Source: Cyanidioschyzon merolae (taxonomy: Eukaryota). Taken from it: 64,000 nucleotides of DNA. Positions 4,737 to 54,425 of this stretch are shown here, one piece after another. The stretch's first letter is position 1. Each line of letters begins with the position of its first letter. Under the pieces are notes generated by a model. It ran no database searches. It was not told the origin of the DNA and was given only the letters and a program-made list of their open reading frames with translations. The stretch lies in the NCBI GenBank assembly GCA_000091205.1, contig AP006496.2; one strand, given 5' to 3'. Position numbers and translations under genes: made by a program.

Positions 4737-7625
4737 CTACCAGGCCCGTTGAAGGCTTCCTTGTTCGAAGCGCCGCAGATCGGGGTAACGAACAGTGGCC
4801 CCGAGCCCAGCGCTAACACCACCTGGTTGTGAAGCTGCCGCCGCTGCTCCCGGAGCGGACGCAGACGATAGCGCAGCACCCGCACCTGCCGAGTCTTGCG
4901 GGTAAGGCAATCCCGCGTGGTAGCCAGTGAGTTGAGAGTTGATCGCGTTGAACATCTCCTGGAGTTTCTCGACACGTCGTCTTTCCTGGAGTAGTTCCTC
5001 GCGACGACGTTCGAGAGCTGCCCGCGCCTCAGCGATATTGAAGACATCGTTGAGGTCGCCGCCATAGAGACGGTCGAGCTTTTCGCGGCAGAAACGTGGG
5101 AACTCCTCTACAACTGGCATCAGGAAGAAGCAATTGAACTTGAGTTCTACAACTTTGGCAAAGTGCATCCGCCAGGCGTCGACAATATGGTCAACAAGCG
5201 AGGACACGACTGCCATGCTGGAGGGCGTCACGACGCGACTCAGGAGGAGGTCGTCCATGAACTGCAGGATGACTTCCTGAGCTGCAACGCGGCTGGGAAG
5301 GATCAGCTTACCATCCTTGCCGCGTTCTAGTTTCCGTGGCAGCATAACCCGTGACCCAGCGCTGCCTGCTAACCGCCCAGCAGCGGGATGCGCATACGCT
5401 TTCGCAGTTCCAGCACCTGCGCTCGTGCCGTCGGAGTCATGCGCTCCATATTGCTGACTCGCATAAAACTCATCCACTGCCTCGGAAGCTGCCTGTTCGG
5501 GACTAACCGGTGATCCGAATAGGCTCTCCTGAATTGCAGCCGGGGCGCCGAGCTCTTCAGCGACGGGCTGAAGGAAGCGCCGCAGTGCAGCCTTGCTGGG
5601 CTGGCTCAGGTTCCAAGTAACAAAACGCGTCATGCTCTCGAGGTCTTCGCGGCAAATGCGCTGCACGTTCGCGGCTGTTCGGTCCAAAAACTCACAGAAG
5701 ATCTGTTCCATAATGCGCCTGAATGGGATATCGAGTGCCTCGTTGAGGGTGAGATTATCACGCCTCATGATAAATTCGACGACCGGAAACATGCGTCGGA
5801 AAATATGTAGGCAACGCAGGGTTAGGCGCTCAAGGAGCGGATCGAAGGCATCGCGCGCTTTCTCCACCGCAATGACGCAAGCCGCTCGCATGTAGTTCGC
5901 ACCGTCGTGAGCGTCGTCGATACCAGTTGCGTTGACGATTTCCTCGGGTGTGACTGGTGGACGTTCCATCTCAGCGACAACAGTCTTAAATTCTCGGAGA
6001 GCGCGGTAGTACTGGGCACCACCAAAGAGCCGCGCTTCTTCGTTTTCCACGCGCGACTCGCCCCGGGACGAAATGGCCAGTCGTGCTATACCGCCAGCTT
6101 GCGCGGACTGAAGATTGGTACCAACACTTCCCAGGTCATGATAAGAGCCTCCACGAATGCGCTCATCGGCCAGAGATTCGCCCCAGAGTGTAGGCGGTGC
6201 GCGAATCGTGCCCTTGATGACGGCTGCGAGCCGGCGGAGAAAGTCTTCTGCGTAGACGCGCCCCTTTTCTTTTAGGCGCTCGAGACTCATGGACTCGAGC
6301 TCCTCGAGCGTGCGCCGGAGCGCCTGGTCGACGTTGCGGAACTCGCCCTGCAGCAAAGGCACTATAGATGGCACGCTTTGCATGTACCGAGTCTGCAAAA
6401 GGTCTTCCAGAAAAGCCCGTAACTTACTGACTCCTATGCGATCACGGAGCGCACGAGGAAGCGGCTTGCCGATTTTGCGCTCGATATAAGCACGATCTTC
6501 AGCTTCACGGCGGGCGATCGCTTGACGGAAGCGCTCGTTACTCTCAAAAACATGCTCCCGTGTATGGCCAACCCGCCCTGCCGGAACTGCCGTGTAGAAT
6601 GGACCTCCGAGAAGCTCCGGGTGGGCGTTCAGAACCGGGCGAGCGAGAAGAAACTGCTCAAGGTCGGCACCCAGTGCGAATTGTGGCAGCTTGGCGTCCA
6701 GCTTGGTGTTCACGAGCACCGTCCGAGACAAGTCCGGGTCGACCTGCATTGCAATACGTCGCGTCGTTGCCGTATGCCAGTCTGCTGTGTCCTCTAAGCA
6801 AAGGATGATGTACTCGGGGCGCGATATTTTTGCCAGCACCAGGTCTTCGACTTCGCGGCTCGCTTGAATAGCTTGTTGTTGCTGGGGATTTGCCCGGCGT
6901 CCAACCGGCGGTGGTGAGAGCAACCCCGGTGTATCAATAAGCGTCAAGTTTGGGCAGTATTTGTATTCTATGCGGATGATGATCTCCTCTGGGTCGAAGG
7001 AGCGAAACGGATCAGTTTCTAGTTTGAGATTCTCCGCCTCGATGTAGGCCTGGATTTCGGCAAGCGATCGCTGTTCTTCGCCTTGATCGGTGGAGAGAAA
7101 ACAGAGTGGCTGCGCACAGCGTGGATTGTACTGCATATGAAGCGTGACTGGCCGACGCGTTTTCGTGCCGCCACCGACGTGCGAGAACTGGAACCCAACG
7201 AGTGCCTCAATCAGTGCAGATTTTCCATCCGTTTGGTGGCCGATCACGACGATTGCAGGGGCGTCGAACGGTTTCTTGAAGTCCTGCGCCAGTGCATGCA
7301 GCAAGTTATATGCCGAGTAAAGCTCCTCGTGAGCAGAGGCGTTCAAAATCGTAGGATCCGCGTGTTCCCCTGACGTCGTGCCGAAAGACGTGCGGTTCAT
7401 CGTTCTCTCTTCGGCGAGTGGTGTACGCGGCGCGGCAAGACCTCCGCCAAGCGAGTTGTCGGCAACACGCGGCTGACGACGGCTCCCGAGCATTCCACTC
7501 GAATTCAAAGCGGCTTCGTTGGCATAGTTTGATGTACTCAGTCCACCACTCCCTGTACCGAAGTTTTCCCATGCGGGGTCAAAGTTCTCTTCCATTCCAG
7601 AGAGATTCAAACGCCTTGCGGTCAT
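4737..7625 (-). CDS. dynamin-related protein, DRP5/ARC5-like (organelle-division dynamin)
   Basis: 962-aa single ORF. GTPase motifs: 'AIVVIGHQTDGKSALIEALVGFQFSHVGGGTKTRRPVTLHM', 'YKYCPNLTLIDTPGL' and 'TKLD'. The N-terminal 'AYNLLHALAQDF' and the C-terminal 'ELKFNCFFLMPVVE' GED-like helix are characteristic of ARC5/DRP5 rather than classical dynamin. It has a low-complexity A/G/S-rich C-terminus. Confidence 0.8.
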   Translation of the reverse strand: MTARRLNLSGMEENFDPAWENFGTGSGGLSTSNYANEAALNSSGMLGSRRQPRVADNSLGGGLAAPRTPLAEERTMNRTSFGTTSGEHADPTILNASAHEELYSAYNLLHALAQDFKKPFDAPAIVVIGHQTDGKSALIEALVGFQFSHVGGGTKTRRPVTLHMQYNPRCAQPLCFLSTDQGEEQRSLAEIQAYIEAENLKLETDPFRSFDPEEIIIRIEYKYCPNLTLIDTPGLLSPPPVGRRANPQQQQAIQASREVEDLVLAKISRPEYIILCLEDTADWHTATTRRIAMQVDPDLSRTVLVNTKLDAKLPQFALGADLEQFLLARPVLNAHPELLGGPFYTAVPAGRVGHTREHVFESNERFRQAIARREAEDRAYIERKIGKPLPRALRDRIGVSKLRAFLEDLLQTRYMQSVPSIVPLLQGEFRNVDQALRRTLEELESMSLERLKEKGRVYAEDFLRRLAAVIKGTIRAPPTLWGESLADERIRGGSYHDLGSVGTNLQSAQAGGIARLAISSRGESRVENEEARLFGGAQYYRALREFKTVVAEMERPPVTPEEIVNATGIDDAHDGANYMRAACVIAVEKARDAFDPLLERLTLRCLHIFRRMFPVVEFIMRRDNLTLNEALDIPFRRIMEQIFCEFLDRTAANVQRICREDLESMTRFVTWNLSQPSKAALRRFLQPVAEELGAPAAIQESLFGSPVSPEQAASEAVDEFYASQQYGAHDSDGTSAGAGTAKAYAHPAAGRLAGSAGSRVMLPRKLERGKDGKLILPSRVAAQEVILQFMDDLLLSRVVTPSSMAVVSSLVDHIVDAWRMHFAKVVELKFNCFFLMPVVEEFPRFCREKLDRLYGGDLNDVFNIAEARAALERRREELLQERRRVEKLQEMFNAINSQLTGYHAGLPYPQDSAGAGAALSSASAPGAAAAASQPGGVSAGLGATVRYPDLRRFEQGSLQRAW

Positions 7626-10545
7626 GGCCGGGACAGCGCCAAACGCTTCGACAAGAGAGCGCCTCCTGGCATGCGCGCCGCCCTATCCGCTGTGGCGCCT
7701 TCATGTTTGGCGATTTGAAATTTCGAAAGCGCAGCGGCTGCCATCGACAGATGGCGCGAGCGCTGGAGGCGACAGCCATCGTCGAAAGTTCGTTCTGTCT
7801 CAAATTTTGATGCCTGTGTGCAGCAGCGAAGATCTGAAGCTCCAGCTCGTGGTCCCCGCAAGCGGGGCGCCTTCTATATACAAGGCTTGTGCGTCTTCCA
7901 AGTGCGAGGCGCAGAGAACGCTCGGATTCGTGAAAGAGCGCTTACCAGTGGCCTGCCGGCTGGCTCTGCTGCATACACGCGTGATGTAGAATGCCGGGCG
8001 GAAAGCTTGTAACGAACGTGGGCGCCTTCAGGTTCTACCATGTTCGGGGCGGTAAGCGCCAAGTGACTTGATCCCCTATCGATCCAGCGACACGCCGAGC
8101 GCTGAAACGTACGCGATACGGGTTTCTCACAGCCGGCCTCGTGCGGTTGGCGCCTCATAGTGGAATTTGGTGATACTTGCAGCAGCGAGCCAGCGAGTGG
8201 CGGAAGCGTACGGACTGCGCGAGGCGTCTAGCGTCACGCGGGGCCTCATGGAAGGCCTCGGGGCTGGCGCCTGGAGGTGATCCGCTGATGCAGCTCCAAG
8301 AGTATTATGCCTGAGAAGCACTGGAACGCTGTCATTAGGGTGATTTTTCACTCTTTGGCACAGGTCAGGTACTCTGCGGCAACGTGCGGAGCCAGTGTTT
8401 CCAAGACCATGAAGTTTGCTCCCGCCGTGAAAACGGGTGCAATGCTCGGCTCTGACTCCGGGCACCATCTCTGCATCCGCAGTGATCAGATCGGGTACTC
8501 TTGCTTTTGTGGTGCGGTCTTCGAATTTGCTCACCATTTTTTTAAAGCGATGCGGAATGTACACGTTACCATTGAGTGAAAGGCAGCAGTATCCGTACTG
8601 ATGCAGACAGACCTCTTATGAATTGTAGCGAATGGTGAGCAAGTAATGGGCAACGCCATCGTATTCGAATGCCGCGGATGGAACGGTTACGCGGCCGTGG
8701 AGATCTGCTCAGCAGATGATCCACAGCTTCTTTTCGGGAACAAAAACGTTTCTCGCCATACTCACCATGCATGCCGCTGGTTTGTTTCCAGAGCATTCCA
8801 GTACCTCACTGCGAGTCGCCGGTGAATCGCCTGCGGGCTGTATGATGGCGCGGTGGCGCTCCCGAAACCTGCGGATCTAGACACCCACTTGAACGCTCTC
8901 CTAAAGTCAGTTTCCTGCGTGCTTCGCATGTCGGCGATCGAATCGCCGTCCTTGAGCTCTACGTACTACAGCCCGATTTCTATCATATGCACTCGCCCGT
9001 TCGGTTATCATCGACCAATGGCGAGGATATCAATCCTTCATGATGGAACGGAAGACCTGAATCCTTGCCCCCAGAAAAGGGATCGGTTTGGAATCCACTG
9101 GGCCCCGCAATGCACTTCAGCTTGGACCCTGGTTCCCGTTGAATTCGCGTTCGCATTGTTCTTGGCAGCTAGGCTCGCTGAAGCCAGTGTGCAAGCATGC
9201 AGCTCGCTCGCCCACGAGCTACCGACTCTCTCTTCAGACTAGAAATATGTTGGCCTGGGAGCCAGAAATTTTTACATCTCCATGATTATCGCGCGGCAGG
9301 TGCGTGCGAGAGTATCTCCGACCTCCGTAAAAGTTTGACGCCTCGACGAATACTACTGAACTGGTTCCGTACCTAGATTGACGGCGGACCGAAAGCTGTT
9401 CGTTCCCAGTCCACAAATGGAGCATATTTTGCATCGAGCAATATTTTGGTGAACGTACTGCTTCGCGCTGTTCCAGCCGATCACGACAGAAGCGTTGCTG
9501 GCCAGCGCGATGCGTGTCATCCGCCTCACCCGATCGCATGCGTGCACGCAACACAGCACTGCGGCATCTGTTCCGATATGTCCCCGAATGAAGTGCTATA
9601 CTTTACCAAACGGACAGGCAAGGCTCGATTGGGTTTCCTGCCGTCTGCCCAGGATGCCCCGGACGACGCACGCGATGCGAGGTGTCGACCCCAAAATCGG
9701 CATGGACGCTGTCAAATGCTAGGCTAGGCGCTTCCACAGCGCAAGTCCGTCAGCGCATACGTGTCCACCGCTGCGCTGTGCAACGACAGGCTCGCATTCA
9801 GCGCCAACGGCCGATCCATCCTTGAACAGTGAACCCGCTTCGCAGAATTTGATACCAAAGAGGCATCGCCAGCGCAACAGTGATCCCGGCGCTTCCCGAT
9901 GTCTGCGTGTGTAGCAGAGCGCACGCCAACCGCACCCGTCACACGCGGCATGGGAACGCTAGGAGTGCAATGTACCGTTGCTCGATCACCGAGTCGCGCC
10001 AGAGCCCCAGCCGCGACTTGGAGATCGTGCGCCTCATCGGACACCTGAACGATCTGCGGGACGCATTTCCCGTTCACCGTTCACACTGGGAGCGAACATT
10101 CGCCCTCAAACGCTTACGGATTCCCATTATGCTAGCCATTTCGTGCAGTCCGCAGCCGCCTAGCCACGCACCCACAACGTTACCTGGTTGTCAAAGCGTG
10201 GCCGTGCGAATGTGCATCGATCGCCGCGCACGCACGCATGCGGCCGGCGGCGCGTCTACGATGCTGTAAGGATCTGCGATCGCGAGCGGCGCTTCTGTGA
10301 CATTCGTGCCGTTTAGGACGCGATCGTTACACGCGCCGTGCAGCGGCCAGCGCACGATCGTTTGGATTCAAATTCCCCCGCGTGTCGCGCAGCAGGCGGG
10401 GCGATTCGCGCGCGCGCAGCGCGGGCTGTGCACTGCGGCCGTTGCGCGGCACTGCTGTGCAGGTAGTGCGCTACGTTGTTGGCGTTCGCTACCGAAACCG
10501 CGACCCAAACGTTTCCTTCTCTTGCTGGTGAAGAAAGAATAGGTC

Positions 10546-11931
10546 ATGCGTGAGATACTGCATATTCAGGTTGGTCAGTGTGGAAACCAGATCGGGCGCA
10601 AGTTCTGGGAAGTGATCTCCGAGGAGCATGGGGTCGACGCCCAAGGCTTCTATCACGGCGACTCGGAGCAGCAGCTCGAACGGATCAGCGTCTACTACAA
10701 CGAGGCTAGCACTGGTCGCTATGTCCCGCGAGCGGTGCTCGTTGACCTTGAGCCAGGGACGATGGACGCAGTGCGCGCTTCCGAGTACGGTACGCTTTTC
10801 CGGCCCGATAACTTTGTCTACGGTCAGTCCGGTGCTGGGAACAACTGGGCGAAGGGTCACTACACAGAAGGTGCTGAGCTTGTTGACGCAGTGATGGATG
10901 TTGTTCGTAAGGAGTGTGAGAGCTGCGAGTGTCTGCAGGGATTTCAGGTTACGCACTCTCTCGGCGGCGGCACTGGTTCCGGCCTTGGGACGCTGCTTAT
11001 CAGCAAGATTCGCGAGGAGTATCCCGATCGGATGATGTGCACATACAGCGTGATGCCGTCCCCAAAAGTGAGTGATACTGTTGTGGAACCGTACAATGCA
11101 ACGCTTTCGATCCATCAACTTGTCGAGAACGCTGATGAGGTATTCTGCATTGACAATGAGGCACTCTACGATATTTGCCAGCGCACGCTGAAACTGACGA
11201 ATCCATCATACGCGGACCTGAACAAGCTGGTTTCCGGTGTGATGAGTGGAATCACCTGTTCCCTTCGGTTCCCTGGCCAGCTCAACTCAGATTTGCGCAA
11301 ATTGGCTGTCAATCTCATTCCCTTCCCGCGCTTACACTTCTTCTCGGTCTCCTTGGCGCCTCTGACGGCAACTGCAAGCACTGCATACCGTCACCTGTCT
11401 ATTGCGGATCTGACGCAACAAATGTTTGATGCGAAGAACCAGTTTGTGGCCTGTGATCCACGCCAGGGTCGTTACCTCACAGCAGCGGCTTACTTCCGCG
11501 GCTCGCGTATCTCGACCAAAGATGTCGATGAGCAGATGAGCATGGTGCAGAGCAAGAACTCGGCGTACTTTGTCGAGTGGATTCCGCACAATATCAAGAG
11601 CTCCGTGTGCGGCGTTCCACCGAAGGGTCTCGATATGTCCTGCGTGTTCGTCGGCAACACGACTGCCGTGCAAGAGATCTTCAAACGGGTCGGGGAGCAG
11701 TTCTCTGCCATGTTCCGGCGCAAAGCTTTCCTTCATTGGTACACAGGCGAAGGCATGGATCCCATGGAGTTCACAGAAGCAGAGAGCAATATGAATGACC
11801 TCGTAAGCGAGTACCAACAGTACGAGCAGGCCGTAGCAGAGGACGAAGATGAAGACGTTGAGCAGGAGTTTGGAGCCTACAGAACTGGCGAAGAGGACAG
11901 AACAGCTATCGAAAGCTCGATCATGAGTTAA
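10546..11931 (+). CDS. beta-tubulin, divergent, with C-terminal extension beyond the acidic tail
   Basis: 461-aa intronless ORF. It starts [17 protein letters not shown], and has the GGGTGSG nucleotide-binding loop and beta-tubulin-wide conservation throughout. The acidic tail '[31 protein letters not shown]' is about 15 aa longer than usual. Confidence 0.9.
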
Positions 11932-12708
11932 ACTAGCTATTTATCTGGTACATATCATTCATAAGCACATGTTTTTGCGTTGAAACCCGGTAAAACACTC
12001 ATGACGTTTTGTGTTGAATTGCAACCAGCACGTTATCGACCAGCTCTCGAACAAAACATCGCTTTATACGGGAGAAGTTGCTGCGGTATTGACCAGAGCG
12101 TACGAAAACTTGTGCAGGCAAAAAGTGTCTGGAGCGCGACATGCTCGGTACAAGGCAGCATCAGGAAGCGTACGGAGCCGCCGCTGCACACCGCGCCGGA
12201 CGCTCTTGACCTGAGATCAGCTCCTCGCCATAACGGATAATTCAAGTTCAGGTTTCGGCGTTACCAAAGTCTCCAGTGCGAAAGCATCTTTGGGCCACGG
12301 CTGTGAATGGCGAGACGCTTTTGTCGTCCAGTAGAGTTGCACAAGGCACTATTCAGAGCCACTTTCAAAGGCGACTGGGCTCGCGCTCAACACGCAGCGT
12401 GCACCTGGACAGCGCTCCTGAAGTTCATACAGAGCAAGTCCGGAACTCCTGTTCAGCACTTGCAGCGCACGTATAGAACATTCCCCAAGCGCCTACAGAG
12501 CTTTTATAGACCACCGCGCTCGAGTCCAGGCAGGCTCCGCTCAGCTGCATGGAACCTCAACGCCTCCGCTGAACTACAGAATCATCTCCGTTCGAGCGTT
12601 GACCTGTAGCCGGGCAGGATCCCGACATCCACCTGGCGTTGTCCTCGTGTGGTACTTTACATTACAGGAAACAGTTCCAATAGAAGGGCTGTTCTCAGTT
12701 TAGACTAC

Positions 12709-14178
12709 TTAACCGTACTGATCGTACTCTACACCGCTCGGGCAGTGCCGTACCCGACCACTCTCGGTTACCCTACCGACGATCTGAACACCGGGAACAC
12801 GCTCAGCCAACCAGCCACAGACCTGAGCAGCAGCGCTGGTTTCGACCACCAACACCATGCCCATGCCCATGTTAAATACACGATACATTTCCGCATCGCT
12901 GATAGATCCTGCAGCAAATTGCAGCCAGCGGAACTCCGGATGAACCGGCAACGGATTCTCAATATCAAAACCAAGATCTGATCGCCAACGCAGGAGGTTG
13001 CTGAGGCCACCGCCCGTGATGTGTGCGAGCCCGTGGAGCGCCTCATAGGAGCAAGGTGCTTGCGCGTGTTGCTCTCTGCAGAGACGCACAAGATCGGCTA
13101 TTGGGTTCACATAGATTGCCGTTGGGTACAGGAGCACCTGCCCCAGCGTGGTCATCGACCAAGTCGGTTGGTGCTCCTCGCCGGATACCATGAAACGCAT
13201 GCATGCTGACGCTTCTGTAGCTACATCGAAGGGTGGCGGTGCGTTCAGGTCAGCGCCTGAACGCGCCACAACTTTGCGAACCAGCGAATACCCGTTACTG
13301 TGAAGGCCCGATGAGGGCAGGCCTAGGAGCAAGTCACCTGGCTCGATGCGCCTACCGTCGAGCTGCGCTCCGCGTGGGAGCCAACCAAGCGCTGTTCCAC
13401 TCATGTCCAAGTGGGTCACCATATCCGGCAGACTAGCGGTTTCGCCGCCTGCTAGGGTAACGCGAGCAAGTCGACACGCTGCACCGAGTGCTTTCCCCAG
13501 TGTAGCCCAGAGGGCTGGTTCCGGATGCGGCGCTGCGATGTAGTCCACAAAGGCGAGTGGCTCCGCCCCGATACAAAGCAGATCGTTCACATTCATGGCA
13601 ACGCAATCGTACGGGATGCCATCATACAAACCGAGCTGTGTAGCGAGTACGAGTTTGGAGCCAACACCATCAGTGCATAGGGCGAGCAGTGTGTTTGGTC
13701 CAAAGTCGATCAAACCGGAGAAGCCCCCTAGTTGGTCGGCTGGCGCGCCTAGCGCAGGTGGGGTTCGGCCCGGTGCACCCAGCGCTTTGACAAGCGCTCT
13801 CACAGAGGCAGACTCGACGTCCAGATCCACGCCCGACTCTGCATAGCTCGGCGACGGAGCCGTTGCTTTTATCGCTGCAGCAGCAGCTATTCCAGGTCGT
13901 GTCCCCAGACCGCTTCTTCTGCGACAAACAAAGCGCACCGACGATCTCGAAGGTTGCGAATGACGTACTCGCGCTTTCACTTGGCGCGTGCTGGCCGCTG
14001 CTCGAAGACCAGGCGTGAAGAGCGCGTTCTTGAAGGCCACGATCGAGCGTTGACGTGAGGGCATTGCGAAGCGACCGCGTGAAGTGTTATGCTGTCTGGG
14101 GAATCCCGAAAACGCCTTTAATTGATTTCTCTGGTGCGCCAAACTTTCAAACTGCGTAAAATAGAGCGTTGTGTGCAA
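12709..14178 (-). CDS. purM: phosphoribosylformylglycinamidine cyclo-ligase (AIR synthetase, PurM), standalone, with about 100-aa N-terminal extension
   Basis: 489-aa ORF. 'YAESGVDLDVE', 'DGVGSKL', 'DCVAMNVNDLLCIGAEPLAFVDYIA' and 'LAGGETASLP' are PurM N- and C-domain signatures. The R/S/A-rich N-terminus is consistent with an organellar transit peptide. It is not fused to GARS or GART. Confidence 0.8.
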   Translation of the reverse strand: MHTTLYFTQFESLAHQRNQLKAFSGFPRQHNTSRGRFAMPSRQRSIVAFKNALFTPGLRAAASTRQVKARVRHSQPSRSSVRFVCRRRSGLGTRPGIAAAAAIKATAPSPSYAESGVDLDVESASVRALVKALGAPGRTPPALGAPADQLGGFSGLIDFGPNTLLALCTDGVGSKLVLATQLGLYDGIPYDCVAMNVNDLLCIGAEPLAFVDYIAAPHPEPALWATLGKALGAACRLARVTLAGGETASLPDMVTHLDMSGTALGWLPRGAQLDGRRIEPGDLLLGLPSSGLHSNGYSLVRKVVARSGADLNAPPPFDVATEASACMRFMVSGEEHQPTWSMTTLGQVLLYPTAIYVNPIADLVRLCREQHAQAPCSYEALHGLAHITGGGLSNLLRWRSDLGFDIENPLPVHPEFRWLQFAAGSISDAEMYRVFNMGMGMVLVVETSAAAQVCGWLAERVPGVQIVGRVTESGRVRHCPSGVEYDQYG

Positions 14179-15015: not shown

Positions 15016-17034
15016 TTGTATCCCTTTTTCTTCATGAATCAGGCTCGACTGATGAACTTGATTAGAAGCGTAAAGACCCATGTTTGTGCGGGATCACTGC
15101 AGAAGAGCGTTTACAGAGGGCTTTTGAGGAGGCAGTGGCTTCGTCGCTCGAGCAGCGCCGCTTCCGAGCAACCGCCTGCGTCGACAACGGCCTCCACAGC
15201 GACTCCGAGTCGTTCAACCGTGAAGCCTACCACACGGAATCACCGTCTCTCGCTATGGTACGTCGCGCTTGTGGTGCCATCCCTGACTTTGGGTGGTGTG
15301 CTCGTCGCGCTGGACTTGAACGATGCGTTTCGAGCACGGGCAGAGCGGCTCCTGCCGGGAACGACGCGCTGGCTCAGCCAGCTTACCGGGAAACCGTATG
15401 GTCAATCAAGCGAGAAAGATAGGATTCACAAAGCGACGGTCCAGCGTTCCCGGCTGCTTCACGCGGCTGCTACGCAGCTGGACAACGAGTTGCGTCTCGA
15501 GGAGGCACCGCCAACGGACAAGTCGTTCATAGGTCACGAGTCAACCGATAGTATACGAGCAGACGCAGAAACTGCTGCGACGCAGATCGCCTCGCATGAG
15601 AAAGACATGTTGAACATCTCCGCTTCGGCTGGTTTCGAAGAAGCACAATCTTCTGAATCAGCTGAACTCCAGGGAGCTGCAGATGAGGGATCTGCTACAT
15701 CTTCAGCGCATGCCTCCACGACGCAGCAGATGACTGCAGCCGAGTCGAGCGAGCACGAGGAGGCTTCACCGGTCAGCACAAAGCAAGCAAGCGCTTTGAC
15801 ATCGACGAGCACCACGTTAAGCGCGTCCACAGAAGCAGAGGCAACTGCGCAGCATGCCCCAGACACATCCGAGTTGTCCGCGTCGCGGGAACATATCCTT
15901 CCAACTGCCGTGGAAATGCAAGCGCTTGTCGAGCAACTTAGTGTGCTAGTTTTGGCAGAAGCCCTACGTGTACGGGAACTTGTGAAACCCCTAGAGTCGC
16001 AGTCTAAGTCCGGGTTACTTGGCGGACGCGGAGCGAATCCGGTGGAGCAACGACGTCAGCTGGCTTTAATGCTCATGAAAGAGGAAACCGCTCTCCAGCA
16101 GGACCTGGAACGGGCCCTGCGGCGTCTGGAAAAGCACCTACGGCAAGCGCTGGAGCCCCAAATCCTTGCCCAACTGCGTCCGCAGTTCGAGAAGGCCTGG
16201 AGCGACCACGAGGCTCTGCTGCGGCAGCAGATGCAAGATGAGCTCGATACACAACGATTGGCACTGCAGCGTGAGCAGGTCGATCGACTTTTAGAGTTGC
16301 AAATGTTGATGGAGCGCGTGGAGGCTCGAGCGCTCCGCGACCGCCTCTACAAACAGTATGCACACTGGGCGCAACGGACTGCGCTGTTGTGGCAGGCTCT
16401 CGCTGTGCGGCTCACGCGGGGAGAGCCATTTTTCGCTGAACTTTCGGCTATGCAACAAGCCTGGCGCTCATTAGCAACCTCCAAAGAAAACCCTGAAAGT
16501 TCGCTCGATACTTGGCAACAGTCCGCCGCCTTGGTTGAGTGCGTGCTCTCGGGTTTGGCCCCTGCCATTGCGATGCAGGGTATACCACCAGCGAGCGCTC
16601 TCCAGGAACGTTTCCTCAATCACGTCTTTCCGGAGAGCCGAGTCGCAGCGCTCATGCCGGCCAATCGAGGGGTCTGGGGTTACTGGCTGGCAAGAATAGC
16701 TGCCTGGTTGAAGACCAATCGACTTGAAGAGAACCTTGACCAAGTCAGCGTCATCCAGATTCTGGACGCCGAAGACGCAAGAGCGGAAGAGCAAACAAAG
16801 CCAGGCACAGGTTTGGCGCTAACGATGGAGCAGCGGCTGCTGTGGGCTCGCCGTTGCGTGGAACGCGGTGATCTTCGGCACGCGCTCCAGCACCTTCAGC
16901 AGATTCCTGCAGACTCACTGGTCTCGCGAATCTGTAAGGATTGGATGACGCAAGTTGAGCGATATCTTGTGACCGAACAGGCAGTCCGGATTATTCGCGC
17001 GGAGTCTACGAGCGTTACCGCAGCTTTGTGTTAG
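15016..17034 (+). CDS. MICOS subunit Mic60/mitofilin-like inner-membrane protein
   Basis: 672 aa. It has a basic N-terminus, then one TM segment 'LWYVALVVPSLTLGGVLVALDL', then a long coiled-coil and acidic/low-complexity middle. The C-terminal 'LLWARRCVERGDLRHALQHLQQIP...ICKDWMTQVERYLVTEQAVRIIRAE' fits the mitofilin C-terminal domain pattern. Confidence 0.5.
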   Translation: MYPFFFMNQARLMNLIRSVKTHVCAGSLQKSVYRGLLRRQWLRRSSSAASEQPPASTTASTATPSRSTVKPTTRNHRLSLWYVALVVPSLTLGGVLVALDLNDAFRARAERLLPGTTRWLSQLTGKPYGQSSEKDRIHKATVQRSRLLHAAATQLDNELRLEEAPPTDKSFIGHESTDSIRADAETAATQIASHEKDMLNISASAGFEEAQSSESAELQGAADEGSATSSAHASTTQQMTAAESSEHEEASPVSTKQASALTSTSTTLSASTEAEATAQHAPDTSELSASREHILPTAVEMQALVEQLSVLVLAEALRVRELVKPLESQSKSGLLGGRGANPVEQRRQLALMLMKEETALQQDLERALRRLEKHLRQALEPQILAQLRPQFEKAWSDHEALLRQQMQDELDTQRLALQREQVDRLLELQMLMERVEARALRDRLYKQYAHWAQRTALLWQALAVRLTRGEPFFAELSAMQQAWRSLATSKENPESSLDTWQQSAALVECVLSGLAPAIAMQGIPPASALQERFLNHVFPESRVAALMPANRGVWGYWLARIAAWLKTNRLEENLDQVSVIQILDAEDARAEEQTKPGTGLALTMEQRLLWARRCVERGDLRHALQHLQQIPADSLVSRICKDWMTQVERYLVTEQAVRIIRAESTSVTAALC

Positions 17035-19145: not shown

Positions 19146-19272
19146 GCTAGTGTATGGAAGGTCGTTCTTGTGCAACTATTCGGAAGCACTAAGGCACGGC
19201 GTTGTGAACGGTGAGGCGTCGGCGCGAAATCCTCCAGACTGCCGCAAAGCTCTCTGCCGACCGCAAGGACCT

Positions 19273-19374
19273 GCATCTTCGTAGTCACGCGGTGTCCACG
19301 AAAGGATGACTATGCTGCGACCTTCATCTTCGTAGTCACGCGGTGTCCACGAAAGGATGACTATGCTGCGACCT
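19273..19374. repeat. 51-bp tandem duplication (x2)
   Basis: 'catcttcgtagtcacgcggtgtccacgaaaggatgactatgctgcgacc' occurs twice back to back, just downstream of the hydrolase gene. Confidence 0.8.
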
Positions 19375-19911
19375 GTCACCTGCTCGGGATCCGAGCCGCT
19401 CAGCGCCGAGCGCTGGTCAAGGACGCGAATGCGAGCTTCTTCTCTGTTCGATGCTGCATTCAGGAAAGACTTTAGGGGGCGTTCTACGTGGCATTAGGAA
19501 TGGCGACGCTCGGGATGGCCTCTTTCCGCAGCGGTTTGTTGTTCTACCAATACGAGCCTCTGTGCCTTGCAGCGGTTCCCGTTATCGAATGAAGCTTTTA
19601 CGAAGCAGATCTCAGCGGGAAACGCGGTAACTGTCGCAGTGTAGCGACGTCTCGAAAACTCGCATGTTCGGCGTGTTACGCGGCATCATCACAAAGCGAG
19701 GTTCTGGACACTGGCGATATATCGCCGAGTTTTGACTTGTTTCCAGAACATTTTCTTCGATTGACGAGCTTCAGCAGGCATGGAGTTGGGTCCTGCTTTA
19801 GAAGTCGGTGCTGCTCGCGAAACTTATGCCGCGGTCAGCACAGCGCTTCTGTGACGGGGAGCATGCAAGTCAGCTGGCTAGTCGCATTACTTTGCAGTGG
19901 ATCACGCTGCC

Positions 19912-25547: not shown

Positions 25548-26549
25548 TTACGAAGATGTCGACGGTCGCGATGCTCGTGGGGGACCCCTGCGGCGACTGC
25601 GATGACGCGGCTTGGGCGAATGGTTTCCGCTTTCGCTGGACTGCTGCTCAGCAGCGGCATTCAAGGAGTTAGGAACCGCGTGCGAGGTTTCTGTAGCGGG
25701 CCCTGTTGTCGGTAGCGTTTCTGCTGTAGCATGCACCGTAGCTGTCGCTCCTAGTTTGTCCATTCCAGCAGTAGGTGTGCCTTCCGTGATCCGCGAACGA
25801 CGCCGAGGCCAGAGCTGGGCGAGCTGGAGCACAGAGGACAGGACGCCAGCAGCCCCTACAAGTGTCTGAGAATGCTGTCCTGGTTCGGCCATATTCAAGC
25901 CTACAAGGATGTCACATCCGTAACGCACAGCTCTGGCGAGCACGCCAGTCTCAAAGCTTCCGGGAGGTGGTCGCTCAGGCTCCAACGCAGTAGCTGCCAG
26001 TGCTGAGATCGAGTCCTTGGCACCCTTTTCATCAGAGCGTCGTTTCCGATTAAGAATAGACCAGAGCTGATAAACATAGAGCGCAAATGAGGCAAGGCTG
26101 GATAGGAGGAGGCTGTATCCCGCACAGCGACCCCAGAAGCGTGCGCGCTTTTGGCCAGGAGGTTCCAAAAACAGTCCCGTTCTGTATAACCAGACGAGAT
26201 GATCAAAACCAAAGTAACAGAAAAGGCCCAAATCAGCCAGCAGCTGCAAAATTGGTGTTCCAAAGATCAGTTCAAGTGTGCCGCCCTTTGTGGTGCGTTG
26301 GTGGTTCCAGTACTTTGCAAGCACGTTGAGGCCGCGAGCCAAACGAAAGAGCTTCCGACCATCTGCGAGCACCAGTTCCAAAGTGAGCGCTTTTTGTGCA
26401 AGTAGTGGAACACGCTCCGGATCTTTTATAAGCAGTTCAGTATAGGGTCCGCGCACGAACTTTGCAGTAAATTGAACCAGGCGGTAGACTTTATCACGAC
26501 CGTCGGTCGTTGCGAGCACCTCTCGCAAGCAACATACTTGGTGTTGCAT
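25548..26549 (-). CDS. PEX11: peroxisomal membrane protein PEX11-like
   Basis: 333 aa. 'TDGRDKVYRLVQFTAKFV', 'LADGRKLFRLARGLNVL' and 'LGLFCYFGFDHLVWLYRTGLF' match the conserved PEX11 N-terminal amphipathic and GRK/LW motifs. There is a basic S/R-rich C-terminal extension. Confidence 0.65.
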   Translation of the reverse strand: MQHQVCCLREVLATTDGRDKVYRLVQFTAKFVRGPYTELLIKDPERVPLLAQKALTLELVLADGRKLFRLARGLNVLAKYWNHQRTTKGGTLELIFGTPILQLLADLGLFCYFGFDHLVWLYRTGLFLEPPGQKRARFWGRCAGYSLLLSSLASFALYVYQLWSILNRKRRSDEKGAKDSISALAATALEPERPPPGSFETGVLARAVRYGCDILVGLNMAEPGQHSQTLVGAAGVLSSVLQLAQLWPRRRSRITEGTPTAGMDKLGATATVHATAETLPTTGPATETSHAVPNSLNAAAEQQSSESGNHSPKPRHRSRRRGPPRASRPSTSS

Positions 26550-32574: not shown

Positions 32575-32790
32575 GTGCATGCATCGACGTTCATACAGTG
32601 CACGCATCGCTATGCATACGTTCATACAGTGCACACATCGCTATGCATACGTGTCCGTGCACGCATCGCTATGCATACGTTCATACAGTGCACGCATCGC
32701 TATGCATACGTTCATACAGTGCACGCATCGCTATGCATACGTGTCCGTGCACGCATCGCTATGCATACGTGTCCGTGCACGCATCGCTGT
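32575..32790. repeat. tandem array of a 28/31-bp unit, about 6.5 copies
   Basis: The units 'gtgcacgcatcgctatgcatacgttcataca' (31) and 'gtgcacgcatcgctatgcatacgtgtcc' (28) alternate head to tail with no spacers, about 250 bp upstream of the giant ORF. Confidence 0.8.
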
Positions 32791-33044: not shown

Positions 33045-36000
33045 ATGCAGTCAAGCGCTAGCGCCGCGGTGTGCGGTTCAGCAACCGTTGGGGATCCCAG
33101 TTCGCGGCGAATCAGTTTCATTCTTACACGAAGAGGATCCCTGGGACTTCAGGAACTCTGTACGGCGTGGGTAGGAACGGCACGCTCTATCCACGGAACG
33201 TGGATCTATCCTGACGGGAGCGGATCGAGCGTCACGGAGCGAGCCTCAGCGGACCGACGGAAAACCGGAGCGGTCAGCGAAAGTGCTGTTCACAGCAACG
33301 ACTGGTTTGAAGAAGCCACCCAGGTCACCCATACAATCGTCACTGAGCTTCTACCCGCGCGCTTTGAGATAGCACACGGCGCTCGCTTATTGTGTGCGAT
33401 AGCGACTGGCCACTGGATCCTGCGGGCATCATACCTGCGGGCATCCGCGAGTGCGGGCTGTTGGCTCGACAATGAGATCGACCATGAATGGGCAGCTTCA
33501 CTAGAGTCGCTGAGCGATGCAGAACGCAGCGTCGCGTCTGCCGCACGATGGTGGCGTGAGTCATTACAGAGCGGTCGGTGCAAACGCCTGTTGCAAGATT
33601 TGCGGGTTTATTTGCTCTGCCCAGCTGTCAACGGAGCATCTAATGAATCGCGGGGGAGGACGTGTGCCTCATGGATGGTCGCTGTTGCTTCCAATGCGCG
33701 CGCCGTTGCTGCCATTGTTCGGGCTACCGGTGCCGAGCTCTGCGGCGTCGGGTCAACCTGCACAGCGTCTGATCACTCGATCGATGTCGTTGTCGAAGTG
33801 TACAGCGAGAATGGGCAAAACAGAATTCCACCAAATACCAGTTGCCTTGAGATGCAACAAGGCCGATGGCTTAGCGCTCTGGATATTGTAGTGGGCCTCA
33901 TTGGCTGCGCTGACGAGCAGCTTCGCTTTGCTCAATTGCGAACGACTCGAAACATCCCAGGTTCGGAGAGTCATCATGCTACAAATAGTTGCAGATTCGG
34001 CTCTTCTGGCGGTGAGAATTCCACGTGCGTATCCGCGCTGGCATGGACGGAGACGGCGACTTCCACGAAGAACGAGGCGGTTCCGTCCAGTGACCCGTCG
34101 CCGTCTGCGGGTCGCCTGCGACAAAGTCCGGGTGAGCGGCAGGAATTGTCGGATGCGCCAGCGCCGGCGACCGTGCTTGCGGCTCAACGCGCTGAATGCC
34201 TCCAGCAGCGACCAAGCGGAGCGTTATCCGGCACGCTATCTCCAGATGGGAGCGTGCTCGAGTCAGCTTGCCATGATGATGATGCACTGGGAGAGGTACG
34301 GCACGGGGTCGGTGCACAGAGGCTCCCTTCAAACTCATTACTTTCGCAAGACGAGACGCATGCTGTCACTCTGAAGCATCCCGACACAACTGGCAACACC
34401 GGAATTTTTACATCATATGGCTCGACGCCCGTTGCTTCCAGCAACAACAGCAGCAGCGGCAGCTCTACCCGATCCGCTCGAATCGTGGCGACAAAATTCG
34501 CCGCGGCTCACGCTCTAGGTGAGTCAGAATCCCGAAGTAGCGGCGAGATTGCGCTGTTGCCTGCAGCAGATTCTGGGACTCTCACGGCACTCGAGGACGA
34601 GGCCCCCCTCGAGCAGCTGTCTGGCATTCGCCGGGACGGGATCACTCGGCAAGACCCAGACAACTCATGCAGCGCGTCGTTCACACGAGTCCTGGGTACG
34701 CTCAGCGAAGACAACCGCTCCTGCGCGCCGCTGAGCGACCACTCTCCGAGCGGGTCTATTGAGAACGCTTGCTGGCCACCGTACCGTCAGACTCCAGATG
34801 ATGCAGCTGCAGACGGGTCGGCAAGTCCCTTTGATGAGTTCGATCTCAAAGGCCTTTGGCAAGCGCGCGAACGAGCCACGGCTGCTTTGCCGGCGCACGG
34901 TACGCGGACGCTGTCGCCACGTAAGCGCCAACGTATTCATCAATCGATAGAAACGCACGACGGCACTTCACGCTGCACCACCAGAAGGGTTTTATTCGGC
35001 TCGATAGCGTCCCCGACGACGCCAGAGGGAGTGGCATCTCATTCAGTCGAAGCGCAGACAGCGGGAGCGTCTTCGCACCGGGCGCTTCCAGAGTCTCGAG
35101 CGCGCGTCGAAACTCGAGTGGAATCGCCCGAACGAATTCCTGTGGACAGCAAAGCGTCTCCGCGATCCTCGCTAGACTGTGATGATGTCTCCACAAGTTC
35201 CAGTCCGATGATGGCAAGTGTCTGCGGCAAGCGCATCAAGCATGAGCCATGTTCATGGCCAGAAACGCGCTCCCCTGGGACCACTCCAAAGACGGATACT
35301 CGCGTAACTGGCGCTTCCACCGCAACGAAATTGGAGACGGGTTCGATTTCCTCACCGGATGCCAAGTTCGGAACGTATGGCTCAACAGCGTGGGATGCGG
35401 TGCAACCGCTGCCCCGAACACACCTGGAGAAGAGAGTCTCGCCAGGGCCGCCACGGCGCCAAGCGCCCGCCCTGAGCCCGAAGTTCCACGTTGCAGCCTC
35501 TGATGCTCCAAGTGTCCTGAATCTTTCCCATTTGCTAGACCTGATCCAGGAATTCGAGAGCGCCGTTCAGCGTGATACGAACGAATGGCGACGTGCAGTT
35601 CTGACGCTTGGGTATTCACGAGCGACAAAAGCTCCGCTGTTTCTCCGGGTGGCGGCGCGGAACTTGCGCCGTCTTCGCTTGTTGATGGAGTCGGGTTGTG
35701 TGCGGGTGCCCATGTCGTACGGCAGACGACTGTGGTATGACAGCGGCGCTACAGACGCGCATCGACTGCAGGCAGCATCGTGGCTCTCGTTTGATGATGC
35801 AGCATGGTGCTTGCGTCGCTCGTCGCTGTTGCCGCCCAGGGATATGGGGCAATTCCGGGAGCGTCTCGTGCAGAGTGCCCGCATCCGGGCTCGCGGGCGC
35901 AGCGAGCTTCACCGCCTTGAACCTGTTCAGGCGATTGTCGGACTCGCTCGCGTTCCGCATCGACAACTATTGCGTCTGGCTCCGGATGCGCAACGACGCG

Positions 36001-39000
36001 TGCACACCCTGCGCCGCGTTGTGAGTCGCCAGTGGACTCGTGAGGCCGTTGCCTCCTGGTCAGAAGCGGCCCTCAAAGCGTGGCGAGATCGCCACGAGAA
36101 CGCAAATGCCTACTACTACCGGCATACCGATCCTGGTGAATTTGAGGGCGAGGAGACGCAGTCGCTCCACACGTGGACGCCTGCGGAACGGCGCCTATTT
36201 TTCGCTGAACTAGATCGCTGGCGTGCCAACCAATGGCGCCTAGGCACCTGCTGGGGCATTTTCAGCAAAGCGATTCCGTCACGATGCGGCTACCAGTGTT
36301 CCAATTTTTACCGGGCATGTATCCGCAGCGGCGAGATCCACGATCCAACGTACGGCTTCAATGCCCGAGGAGAGCTGAAGCGACTTTATCCGGAGCGCGA
36401 GGACCCGAACACGCGCGCTCCGCCTGACGCGCTGAATTGTCTCAGCGAGGTCTGGCAGTGGCCCGAGATCCAGTCCATGGAGCGGCAAGTCGATACGTGG
36501 ATTCGGGAACTGCATCCGAGCCTGGCTCTGAATGCAAATTGGTATCGACAGCAGCGCCCTGCAGGCGAACCGCAACGACGCAACGTGCGCGCTGCCTCTG
36601 GTGGACAGCGACAGGCGCGCAGTATTCGCCGCTCACTGCCAGCGACACACATCGACCTGCTTGGGTCGTACCCCGACGCATACATCACCACAACTGATGC
36701 AGCATACGAAGAAGCGGATGTGCGGCATCGACGCGAACGCAGACTCGCGTATCGTTCCGCCTCCGTCGCCTCGACAGGATGCTGTGTGGTCGCACCTGCA
36801 CCTGATCAGCGACGCCTTGAGTCGCGCACTGGCAGCCGCCAAACTTTGCGTTCTCGATCGCAAGCGGAAACGCCCGAACTGGCCTTTGTTGAGGTCGACG
36901 GAGGCGCGCTGATGGAAGTGATGCAAGCGCCCGCCGCAGACCCAGTGGCTGTACCGCAGCGGCGCCGTCTTCGACGTCTCGCCTCACCAGAATCCGACCT
37001 TGTTGACCAGGATGCATTTGGAGTCGATGACGCGCGCTGTCCTACTGTGGCATCTCCAGAGAGCCATAATGCAACAGCGATGCGGTATCAGCAGCGCCCG
37101 AATCGTATCGTTCTTGAGGCAGAGCATGCTGGCACCTCGCTGGGTGCACCATCAGGCCAGAGAAGCGACCGCTGCAATGCAAACCTCGACAAGGTTGCTA
37201 TTGGTGTCGTTCGCTCCATGCGCTCTATGACTGCCCGCAGGCAGCGACTAGAAAGCATTCTGGAACGGATTCGGGCAGGCAAGGCGTCCACGCGGGGACC
37301 AGCACCTGCGCCGGTGCATTCGCTGTTGCAGGCGTCCATGTCAGATGGCAAAGAAGCGTCCTTGTCGGGCAGCACTTCACCAGTGCATGAAGCTCCCGAC
37401 TGGCGCGTACAGCGCCTGCGTCACCTGGTTGGGGCAGCTGATCAGCCTCAGCGCACCGCGCTACTCCCAGCGTTGGAGGCATCTTCTGGAGCGGTCGGCG
37501 GAACATCGCAGAGGTTACCGGCACCGTTGGCGACAGCAGAGGGGCATTCTGGCCGCAAACGCCGCCAACCACAACGACTACTCATTGCTGGACAGACGGC
37601 GGCGACGACGACGACGACAGGAGCAGCAGCAGCAGCAGCAGCAGCGATGAACGCATCTGGTGCAATAGTGCCGCCGATGGAAACGGAGACCCGCTCTGCA
37701 CAGAGGTCAGCAGTCGCACAGCATTGTTACACGGAACAGATTGTACAAGAGACAGGAAACGACTTGCCGGGTGATGAAGGCGACGCTGCGCATCAGCGTA
37801 CAAGTCGATTCTGGGCGCACCAGCATCAGCAGCGTTCACCCGCGAGCATCGTACCTGCGTTCAGAGCCAGTAAGCAACAGACACGCCTCCCGGAATGGCG
37901 TCCGCAGACGCTTTCGGACCATTTGTTGCGACTTTGTCGATTGCTGGACTTGTCGTCGTCGTCGTCGTCGTCGTTATCGAATGCGTGGTGCGATAATGCG
38001 CTCGGGCTTCCACCAGCCGGGGTGCCGCTCGAACGGGCGACACTCGCGCACCCCGAGTGCTTCGACGCTGGCAGATCACACCCTCTACCGCTGATTGTCG
38101 CGGAACGTTCGACTGTGACGGCAGCAGGGACGCGCTCGCAGGCTACAGATTCGTGGAATGCTGCTGACGCTTTTATTGACGGCTTGGACGGTGTGGATGC
38201 GTCGTCGTCGTTGTTGCAGCAGGACAGCGCGCCGCCAGCAACCGCTACAGACGCAGCTGGACGCAGCCGGTATGCTGGCGATAACCCAGACTCTAGCTTC
38301 TACGCAGCCTGGAGTGGCTACTTGAATCAAATGTTGCAGAGAATCCTTCAACGGCGCTGCGGGGATGCTCCTGCAGATCCGCATGCGGAAACGAATGTGA
38401 GCGGTGCGTGGAACGCGCACGACGAGCATGCTTCTGGAACCGGTGCGTCGCAAGCGTGGAGCTGTTCGCTTTCGACACGCGACACGAGCTGCCAGTTCAC
38501 GCTCTGGCCGATGTTGCAAACGCTGTTGGAACGGCTGGCGAACGACGTGGTGCTCTTGTACACGGACGCGGACCCAGTGCTAGGACAGTGGCTGCGACAA
38601 TCGGGTTCTCGCTTCGCCGATGGTCAAGAGGGAGCGGAGCCCGCTCTCCCGCACCTCATACAGCTGGTGATGCGATTGACGGCGCTGCATGCCGACACGC
38701 AAGTCGTTGTGGCGGCGCATTCGCTGGCGACGTGTGTGCACGAGGCGCTCGACGGCACCAGTGCCTCGTCGTCGGGAATATGTTGCGCGCGAGACGCCCT
38801 GTGGATAGCCGTCGCTGTTGGTCTTGAGCGAGCATCGGCAGCGCATGTTCGTCTCCCGACGTTACCGTTGACGATTCCGCAAACGATACCGGTAACCGCT
38901 GCAAACGCGGCGGAAAGCGTGAATGAGCAAGCAAATGCCCAGCAGCAGCTACGTTCGGCACTACGTCTTTTCTGCTGGCACCTGCTTTGTAGCGAAGCGC

Positions 39001-40588
39001 TTCATTGTGCGCCCGTGTTGCTGACAAGTCCGATGTGCTGGCGCCTTGGAGCATCGGCGCTGGCCGAAAGCCTCCAAGGATGGCGGACACTGCGTCAGGA
39101 ATGCACGTCGTCGTCGTCGTCGTCGTCGTCGTCGGGGTCAGCAACGTTGACGATGCCTGCGTTGGCGGCGCTTCTCGCACGCTGGCATGAGCGGGTGCTT
39201 GCGTGCTGCACCCGACACTGGCGCCAGGTTGTGAATGCGGCATGTACGCATCATACTGGCGGCTTCTCGTTGGACACCTGTGCTCCGCTGCTGGAGCAGG
39301 CGCTTCACCTCGGCGCTGAGGCCGCGACCTGGATCGCTTTTCCGCTAGCAACCACCACGAACGCTGAAACAACACTAGGACATGCTGCTCAGCGTCGGCT
39401 TGGTCGTCATGATTGGCGTCTGCAGGCACAGGCGCTGGACGAATGGGCCACGGAGCTGATGCGACCGTTCAGTCCCGAAAGTGACGCGCTTGGCTGCACG
39501 GTGCTGCGTCCTGCTGCTGCTGCTGCTGCTGCTGCTGCCGCCGCCGCCGATTATGATGGTAATCATAACGACGGTCATGATGATCACGGTACACCCGCAT
39601 CGCTCCAAAATATCTGCAATGTTGACTCGTCAACCGCTGTAGTTGCCCTGGCGGGCGTACCCAATGCATGGCATTCGAATACGCTGGGTGCGCCGTTTTC
39701 GCAGCCGTCCACATCAGTCGACGGATTCTATGTCCAGGGCGCTGCGGCGCTGAGCGCACCTGTCACTCTTGGCGCGTTATTTGGCGTGCTACGCTCTGCT
39801 CTGGAGATGTTGGCCGTCTGGAGAACAAGCTGCTGGCAGCGTTTCATCACCAATGCATCGAGTCCGGTGGCAGCATGCAGCGTGGTGGTGGACGACGCGA
39901 ACGCCACCCATGCTGGAGCGCGCTTGCTAGCCAGCACACTCGAACGACGCTGGCTGCAGTTGCTACGCGCGTCGTTGGCACGTCTCTGGCAGGTCAGCGG
40001 GCCCGCAGACGACACAGCAGGCGATGGTGTCTGCCACTGGATCGACCGTAGCTACGGCCCATATGTGTTCTACCTGTACGGGACAGCGCTGCTGGCGCAG
40101 ATGCTCCCTGATCCAGAACGGCAGGCACTCTACAGACAGGTGCGGCATCGCTGCCCTAACTGGATACTGCCGACGCTCCTGCGTCTACACGGGGCGTTTA
40201 TGATATGGTGCTGCACTCGTGTGCGATTCCTCGAGACGTCGCAGCATGCGGCATCATCTGCAAACGAAACGGCGATGGCGTCTCCAGGCAGTGCAACGCC
40301 GCCGCTGCTGCTGCTGCTGCTGCATGGACTTGTCCATGTGCATGCGACGGAATGGGTGACGCTTTCGCAGCAATTGCTGCGCTGGCTGGAGACGGCTGGT
40401 GCGGCACCAGCCGGATTGCTTCCGTCAGCGGGTATGGCGTATGCATCGGAACGCGCGCCCCTGCCGGCAGTCTTGGCGCAACGCGTCCTTGCGCAGCGGC
40501 TCGAGACCAACCGCGTGATGCTTGGACAGATTCCAGCGCTCGATCATGTGACCGCATGGGTCGAGCGTTGCGTGGCAAGCAGCAGCAA

Positions 40589-40620
<32 letters not shown>

Positions 40621-54240: not shown

Positions 54241-54425
54241 TTCCGTCTCTCAGGGTCCTGCTTGTGTGGAGTACACGTTGCCCAGCAAAGCACCAGCGTA
54301 GAGCAGTCGCCACAACGATCTCCGCGCCTGTGCGCTGCGGCTGGCGCACTGCCGCATCTCATCGAGGCGAGATCGCGGCGCCTGGAAGTGGACATCAGCG
54401 GCGGCAGCGGCGGCAGCGGCAGCAG

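Follow-up and report, generated by a model that had tools for sequence, protein, structure and literature searches.

What kind of beta-tubulin is encoded at positions 10546–11931 of the 64-kb stretch of Cyanidioschyzon merolae DNA analysed here (the window)? The predicted protein combines a recognisable tubulin core with uncommon residues and a long C-terminal tail. An earlier note, made from the letters of the window alone, had left two readings side by side, a specialised paralog or a divergence of the whole lineage. We addressed the question by establishing the identity of the gene, by locating its uncommon residues against a broad set of beta-tubulins, and by asking which of these features recur in related red algae.

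Identity of the gene

The open reading frame (ORF) is single, uninterrupted and intronless; it comprises 461 codons with an ATG start and a TAA stop, and specifies a 461-amino acid (aa) product. An exact-sequence look-up showed that this product is identical to the beta-tubulin of C. merolae 10D (BAM81345.1 / XP_005537381.1 / BAC67666.1), and that the identical protein sequence is present in independent depositions, on 66 contigs. Cloning primers have been published for the beta-tubulin locus CMN263C (PMC8052221), and both matched the ORF with no mismatches, the forward primer at 10546–10573 (+) and the reverse primer at 11900–11925 (−). Upstream, the other strand (4737–7625, −) encodes a 962-aa dynamin with a Dynamin_N match, which fits cmdnm2/CMN262C, the plastid-division dynamin. 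Because of the protein identity, the primer matches and the dynamin neighbour, the window was assigned to C. merolae chromosome 14 and the gene to an annotated locus in experimental use. The ORF is CMN263C, a beta-tubulin gene already annotated and used experimentally; the 461-aa sequence, the primer sites and the CMN262C neighbour are the same in strain 10D, and no difference from the ORF studied was found.

10546..11931, + strand: beta-tubulin coding sequence, locus CMN263C (exact protein match, primer matches)

Beta-tubulin family features

The view of the earlier note that the core is beta-tubulin was borne out by domain and structure searches alike. Two Pfam domains were recognised, Tubulin (PF00091) at 222.7 bits against a cutoff of 33, and Tubulin_C (PF03953) at 128.9 bits against a cutoff of 26.6.

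10552..11181, + strand: GTPase (nucleotide-binding) domain, aa 3–212 (Pfam PF00091, E 6.2e-66)
11326..11691, + strand: tubulin C-terminal (intermediate) domain, aa 261–382 (Pfam PF03953, E 1.6e-37)

The best 60 matches among solved structures (PDB) were beta-tubulin chains in 60 of 60 cases, with E <= 1e-235 and end-to-end alignment; the top match, 6u0h_B (E 2.5e-242), was aligned from residue 1 to ~441. A 1-aa insertion near aa 320 of the CMN263C protein was the sole gap relative to the solved beta chains. Database matches with names given by their sources were nearly all beta-tubulins. The protein carries the motifs GQCGNQ (aa 10–15) and NNWAKG (aa 99–104), the tubulin signature GGGTGSG (aa 140–146) and DNEAL (aa 203), all in columns that were invariant in a 27-sequence alignment, as well as the beta-type N-terminus MREI (aa 1–4). 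Beta- and alpha-tubulins are distinguished by the T7-loop/H8 motif, which holds a Lys in the former and the catalytic Glu in the latter. In CMN263C this segment reads LRKLAVN (aa 250–256), with the beta-type residue K252.

Compared with canonical solved beta-tubulins such as 6u0h_B, 6tis_B and 4i4t_B, CMN263C has the same fold domains, GTP-binding motifs and H12, with ~77–80% identity over aa 1–441. It differs from them by nine deviations at columns conserved at 90% or more, by a rewritten M-loop region, by the 1-aa insertion at ~aa 320, and by a tail that is 13–16 aa longer and has a non-acidic end. An AlphaFold2 model computed from the 27-sequence alignment reached a mean pLDDT of 48.8, with the entire C-terminal half below 50, and was too poor for statements on tail disorder or M-loop geometry.

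Extent and location of divergence in the core

To place the uncommon residues, ~120 beta-tubulins were projected onto the query; removal of the cyanidiaceans and a 92% identity filter left a comparison set of 38–39 sequences from animals, fungi, oomycetes, alveolates, plants, other red algae and metagenomes. The core was defined as 430 columns, of which 266 were at least 90% conserved in these 38–39 sequences. CMN263C deviated at 9 of the 266 conserved columns (E128, S269, I286, D288, Q299, F300, G356, V375 and P406). Its identity to the consensus was 82% (other taxa, 84–93%) and its mean pairwise identity 77% (comparison proteins, 77–84%). On a midpoint-rooted neighbour-joining tree its root-to-tip distance was 0.103, with most other tips at ~0.08 (range, 0.05–0.11). 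Judged by these sequence measures, CMN263C is best described as a moderately long branch and not as a strongly divergent tubulin.

This picture is milder than that drawn before. The earlier note had stated that many normally invariant positions differ, and had quoted peptides from the protein in support. The quoted peptides are all present in ORF 10546..11931, yet none of the nine conserved-column deviations lies in the three quoted segments (including MCTYSVMPS). Every invariant or near-invariant column within these segments was retained, as counted over 38 beta-tubulins (E27, H28, G29, G34, Y36, G38, Q43, G57, Y59, T166, S168, V169, P171 and S172). The differences that the segments do contain occupy widely varying columns, C165 being found in 23/38, R58 in 15/38 and Y167 in 8/38 of the comparison proteins. 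Q33 and F35 were the only residues of the quoted segments unseen elsewhere in the 38, and both fall in highly variable columns. As worded, the statement on invariant positions was therefore not borne out.

The more telling residues lie elsewhere. When rare residues were defined as those present in at most 1 of the 38 comparison beta-tubulins, 30 were counted in the core of CMN263C, and 10 of these fell within aa 267–301, which comprises the M-loop (S7–H9 loop) and the loop after H9 (Fisher one-sided p = 3e-5, for a region picked post hoc). Under the textbook bounds of the M-loop (aa 270–286), rare residues occupied 5 of 17 positions, as against 25 of 413 elsewhere (Fisher one-sided p = 0.004).

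11344..11448, + strand: lineage-specific cluster of rare residues, aa 267–301 (per-column counts, 38 beta-tubulins)

The M-loop makes the lateral contact between protofilaments and lines the taxane pocket. The sequence of this region includes KNQFVA in CMN263C, where the consensus reads KNMMAA; the lateral-contact tyrosine, Y281, and the flanking motifs PRLHFF and LTQQMFD are retained.

The C-terminal tail

The second claim of the earlier note, that the tail continues ~15 aa past the usual acidic end, agreed with our measurements, and the added stretch finishes in non-acidic sequence. The CMN263C tail after EYQQY is 35 aa long; the mode among the ~120 beta-tubulins collected was 19–22 aa, so that the tail is ~13–16 aa longer. 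Asp and Glu account for 13 of its 35 residues, and aa 432–441 form an uninterrupted acidic block. The distal 20 aa (442–461) are only partly acidic and include two Arg.

11824..11868, + strand: proximal tail with the usual acidic block, aa 427–441 (tail comparison)
11869..11928, + strand: distal tail extension, ~15–20 residues past the canonical tail, aa 442–461 (tail lengths)

Other intact beta-tubulins in the sample had tails of up to 28–32 aa. Those of Cladochytrium tenue (P0107, 32 aa) and Drosophila (P0047/P0048, 30–31 aa) resemble the CMN263C tail in that the proximal block is acidic and the extension behind it less so. The cyanidiacean tails, at 35–37 aa, exceeded all other intact tails of the sample and had no sequence kinship to those of Cladochytrium or Drosophila. 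The long tails in the latter two show that the length of the tail is only loosely fixed within the family. Saccharomyces cerevisiae Tub2 (457 aa) has another long, partly non-acidic tail.

One further entry was set apart. The Galdieria phlegrea protein P0088 (457 aa) has a basic and hydrophobic C-terminus after EYQQY (KKLLLKMNLMLTLMRKPIENRKTFQHGKRHNL), which suggests that the 3′ end was mis-modelled in the public annotation, through a missed intron or a frameshift, and that this is not a real tail.

The uncommon features in cyanidiacean relatives

We then compared CMN263C with the beta-tubulins of other red algae, whose total and tail lengths were as follows.

Cyanidiococcus yangmingshanensis (KAF6002661.1/KAK4531434.1): 461 aa, tail of 35 aa
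Cyanidium caldarium (CDCA16G4278): 462 aa, tail of 36 aa
A further cyanidiacean (public sequencing run): 463 aa, tail of 37 aa
Galdieria partita: 444 aa, tail of 19 aa
Compsopogon: 444 aa, tail of 19 aa

Core identity to CMN263C was 99.5% in Cyanidiococcus, 93.9% in Cyanidium, 90.1% in the further cyanidiacean, 78.6% in Galdieria and 77.5% in Compsopogon. Thirteen of the 30 rare residues (Q33, K227, S267, S269, L270, T276, I286, Q299, F300, G356, C366, V375 and P406, the last at the start of the H11–H12 loop) were common to all four cyanidiaceans and different in both Galdieria and Compsopogon. The cluster at aa 267–301 showed the same distribution, being kept in Cyanidium and in the further cyanidiacean and absent from Galdieria and Compsopogon. 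Two signature strings, SIADL and GMDPME, were confined to the six cyanidiacean sequences among the 244 collected; neither was present in the remaining 238. The Cyanidiococcus and Cyanidium proteins are orthologs that match CMN263C in the M-loop signature, P406, G356, Q299–F300 and tail length.

The two parts of the tail behaved differently. In the proximal part, identity to CMN263C was 9–10/15 in Cyanidium and the further cyanidiacean and 8–9/15 in Galdieria and Compsopogon. In the distal part, length was kept and identity was 17/20 in Cyanidiococcus, 4/20 in Cyanidium, where the sequence is Gly/Ala-rich, and 6/20 in the further cyanidiacean. The sequence of the distal tail thus appears to be weakly constrained.

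On the neighbour-joining tree, the four cyanidiaceans formed one clade adjoining other red algae, with root-to-tip distances of 0.10–0.11. The phylogeny that the earlier note had proposed as a check thereby points to a lineage trait. The comparison of tails, also proposed there, gave a divided result, the length of 35–37 aa being shared and the distal sequence not (4–6/20 in Cyanidium and the further cyanidiacean). Possession of this exact sequence by the whole lineage, which the note had taken as the mark of a lineage trait, was essentially found, with one qualification: the whole lineage has the tail length and the proximal acidic block in common, and the exact distal tail recurs in the sister genus Cyanidiococcus only.

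Since the core oddities and the long tail are found in Cyanidioschyzon, Cyanidiococcus and Cyanidium and not in Galdieria or Compsopogon, they arose after the Galdieria split and were fixed in the lineage. Of the two readings left side by side at the outset, lineage-wide divergence is upheld by the presence of the features in three other cyanidiaceans, and the paralog reading runs against a literature that knows one locus. CMN263C is almost certainly an ordinary, known beta-tubulin, whose odd features belong to the Cyanidioschyzon/Cyanidiococcus/Cyanidium lineage and not to a specialised isotype.

Relaxed constraint or adaptation

In C. merolae, tubulin is expressed in part of the cell cycle only, and microtubules are organised solely during division (PMC8052221). 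CMN263C is induced in G2-M (PMC2646357), and a C-terminal fusion, CMN263C-sfGFP, labels both poles and spindle and is gone in G1 (PMC8052221). The primer positions show that the cloned insert, expressed as a working GFP fusion, runs to the penultimate codon (PMC8052221). According to the literature, the organism has five kinesins, no dynein and no myosin. The earlier note had further linked the tail with polyglutamylation and polyglycylation, an angle that gained no support: no paper found in our literature search connects C. merolae with either polyglutamylation or TTLL, and cilia are absent from the organism.

From these data a sequence of events may be proposed. The CMN263C protein, its GTP-binding fold intact, pairs with the alpha-tubulin CMT504C, and the heterodimers assemble into microtubules. 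These exist around mitosis only and make up the spindle and polar structures; the gene is switched on in G2-M. So small a role, confined to the spindle (no cilia, dynein or interphase array, and five kinesins), may have shifted the constraint acting on the tubulin. The shift would have permitted a rewriting of the lateral-contact loop that is now fixed and conserved in the lineage; the lengthened distal tail would drift freely, whereas the acidic block of the proximal tail, on which motors and microtubule-associated proteins (MAPs) rely, is kept. Such a shift in constraint on a spindle-only tubulin is the most likely cause of the odd features, as far as sequence comparison can indicate. The 13 conserved lineage residues, seen across sequences that are 90–99% identical, are equally compatible with adaptive change.

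The mitosis-only tubulins of Naegleria, which diverge mainly at lateral contacts (PMC9036621), offer a parallel, in that their beta-tubulins combine use in the mitotic spindle only with lateral-contact divergence, as CMN263C does. The parallel has its limits: the Naegleria mitotic tubulins are true extra paralogs and far more divergent, whereas CMN263C is a sole beta-tubulin with ~77–80% identity to canonical proteins.

Adaptation could have produced the same features, if the sole housekeeping gene had been re-tuned and the M-loop rewrite, the E-to-P change at 406 and the extended tail had been selected, possibly for lattice stability at 42–57 °C or for interaction with a diminished complement of kinesins and MAPs. 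Under selection, the concentration of rare residues in the lateral-contact M-loop (5/17 vs 25/413, p = 0.004) would be expected, as would their strict conservation among cyanidiaceans that differ at 6–10% of core sites and the maintenance of a 35–37-aa tail length though not of its sequence. The preferential divergence of the Naegleria mitosis-only tubulins at lateral contacts (PMC9036621) points the same way. However, in Galdieria, which is equally thermoacidophilic, the M-loop is canonical and the tail 19 aa long, distal tails of different genera agree at only 4–6/20 positions, and the bulky C-terminal sfGFP is compatible with incorporation into the spindle (PMC8052221). On balance, we regard adaptive re-tuning as possible, although unlikely. 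Thermoacidophily as a simple cause is weakened, because the thermoacidophile Galdieria keeps the canonical M-loop and the short tail.

A more comprehensive form of the same idea would treat the rewritten M-loop (S267, S269, L270, T276 and I286), Q299–F300, P406 and the 35–37-aa tail as one package, an adaptive re-engineering of the microtubule lattice and its outer surface to suit a minimal cytoskeleton that consists of the spindle only and works at high temperature. We hold this to be doubtful. If it were true, lateral-contact strength, dynamics or motor interactions would be measurably different, and the gene would still be the known CMN263C.

Copy number

The copy number of the gene was considered from several sides. 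No other tubulin-like sequence was found in the 64-kb window. Among the best 120 matches, which reached down to Galdieria-level similarity, there was no second protein from C. merolae, Cyanidiococcus or Cyanidium. A query with the C-terminal half (aa 256–461) returned short fragments and chimeric gene models, missed the query's own cluster and yielded no new cyanidiacean, and was useless as a paralog census. A cell-cycle microarray study lists one locus per class, namely CMT504C (alpha), CMN263C (beta) and CMN304C (gamma) (PMC2646357), and a 2026 paper speaks of "the beta-TUBULIN ORF" for each of three cyanidiophycean species (PMC13353863). The main text of a tubulin-family survey makes no mention of red algae (PMC4202323). 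That CMN263C is the single beta-tubulin of C. merolae is well supported by the literature and by the lack of a second match among the best 120.

These results bear directly on the reading of CMN263C as a specialised paralog, one of several isotypes, whose tail would have diverged to suit one given microtubule array or one given set of motors and MAPs. Isotype-specific tails are the rule in animals, and the CMN263C tail is indeed unusual in length and composition relative to most beta-tubulins. A specialised isotype should carry features that the housekeeping ortholog of related species lacks; the rare residues and the tail length were found in three related taxa, in orthologs from three other cyanidiacean genomes or assemblies. 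In addition, each cyanidiacean contributed one protein to the best 120 matches, the literature names one beta-tubulin locus (PMC2646357, PMC13353863), C. merolae has one kind of microtubule array, in mitosis only (PMC8052221), and the 64-kb window holds no second copy. A paralog is very improbable on this evidence.

An artefactual tail (a sequencing frameshift, read-through or a missed 3′ intron, with a canonical acidic true end), for which the aberrant basic C-terminus of the related entry G. phlegrea P0088 (457 aa) could be cited, has a negligible probability and was rejected, because the tail runs in frame straight through the acidic block, is identical in independent depositions (66 contigs), recurs at 35–37 aa in four taxa, and belongs to an ORF that was cloned to its penultimate codon and gave a working GFP fusion.

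Flanking sequences and other features of the window

The segments that flank CMN263C were assigned as follows.

11932..12131, + strand: 3′ flank of the beta-tubulin gene (+1 to +200), in wide use as terminator/polyadenylation cassette of C. merolae transformation vectors (coordinates inferred from the stop codon)
7626..10545, no strand assigned: 2.9-kb spacer between the divergent ORFs of cmdnm2/CMN262C (4737–7625, −) and beta-tubulin

For the 3′ cassette, 197 or 250 bp located downstream of the ORF for beta-tubulin have been used (PMC13353863). The spacer contained no ORF of at least 150 aa and presumably holds the promoters of both genes. Both cmdnm2/CMN262C and CMN263C belong to the G2-M-induced group (PMC2646357), so that one bidirectional cell-cycle promoter may serve the two genes. 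About 130 bp upstream of the tubulin ATG there is a GC-rich stretch, TTCGCGCGCGCGCAGCGCGGG.

Several ordinary single-exon housekeeping genes were recognised elsewhere in the window, whose 64 kb yielded no tRNA genes.

6-1571, − strand: scramblase
12709-14178, − strand: N-terminally extended AIR synthase (PurM)-like protein
15016-17034, + strand: mitofilin/MIC60
25548-26549, − strand: PEX11

The most GC-rich part of the window (0.60–0.625) contains a giant ORF of 3504 aa (33045–43559, +), which had no Pfam match at 1e-5; its sole match was a weak BRCT-like one, between aa 110–182 and SLF1/TopBP1 chains (E 5e-6 to 3e-4). Tandem repeats lie on both sides of this ORF. A 31-bp unit repeated 6.8 times (90% matches), in which periods of 59 and 90 bp are nested, occupies 32587–32788, ~260 bp upstream, and a near-perfect 147-bp unit repeated 3.9 times (99% matches) occupies 43911–44487, between the giant ORF and an Avl9-like ORF (44698–46731).

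A 75-bp (25-codon) unit is repeated five times at 49763–50137, inside ORF 49686–50480 (−), and a related unit occurs 1.9 times in reverse complement at 59115–59256, just downstream of ORF 57984–58883 (+). This arrangement suggests that the two ORFs, which had no Pfam match, are inverted paralogous repeat-protein genes. The repeat pair coincides with sign flips of both GC skew and AT skew at 48–52 kb and 58–60 kb. Two further short tandem repeats were found, a 51-bp unit at 19268–19375 (2.1 copies) and a 67-bp unit at 54425–54626 (3.0 copies).

Significance for the minimal cytoskeleton

As a discovery the locus has little value, since CMN263C is annotated, has been GFP-tagged as a spindle marker, and supplies with its 3′ flank a standard terminator of C. 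merolae vectors. What has changed is the picture of the protein. It is an ordinary, mildly long-branch beta-tubulin, and its real peculiarities are an M-loop region specific to the lineage and a distal tail that is long and evolves fast; both post-date the Galdieria split and have no link to an isotype. For the study of minimal cytoskeletons, they provide a short list of residues for mutation in a genetically tractable organism with one beta-tubulin and five kinesins.
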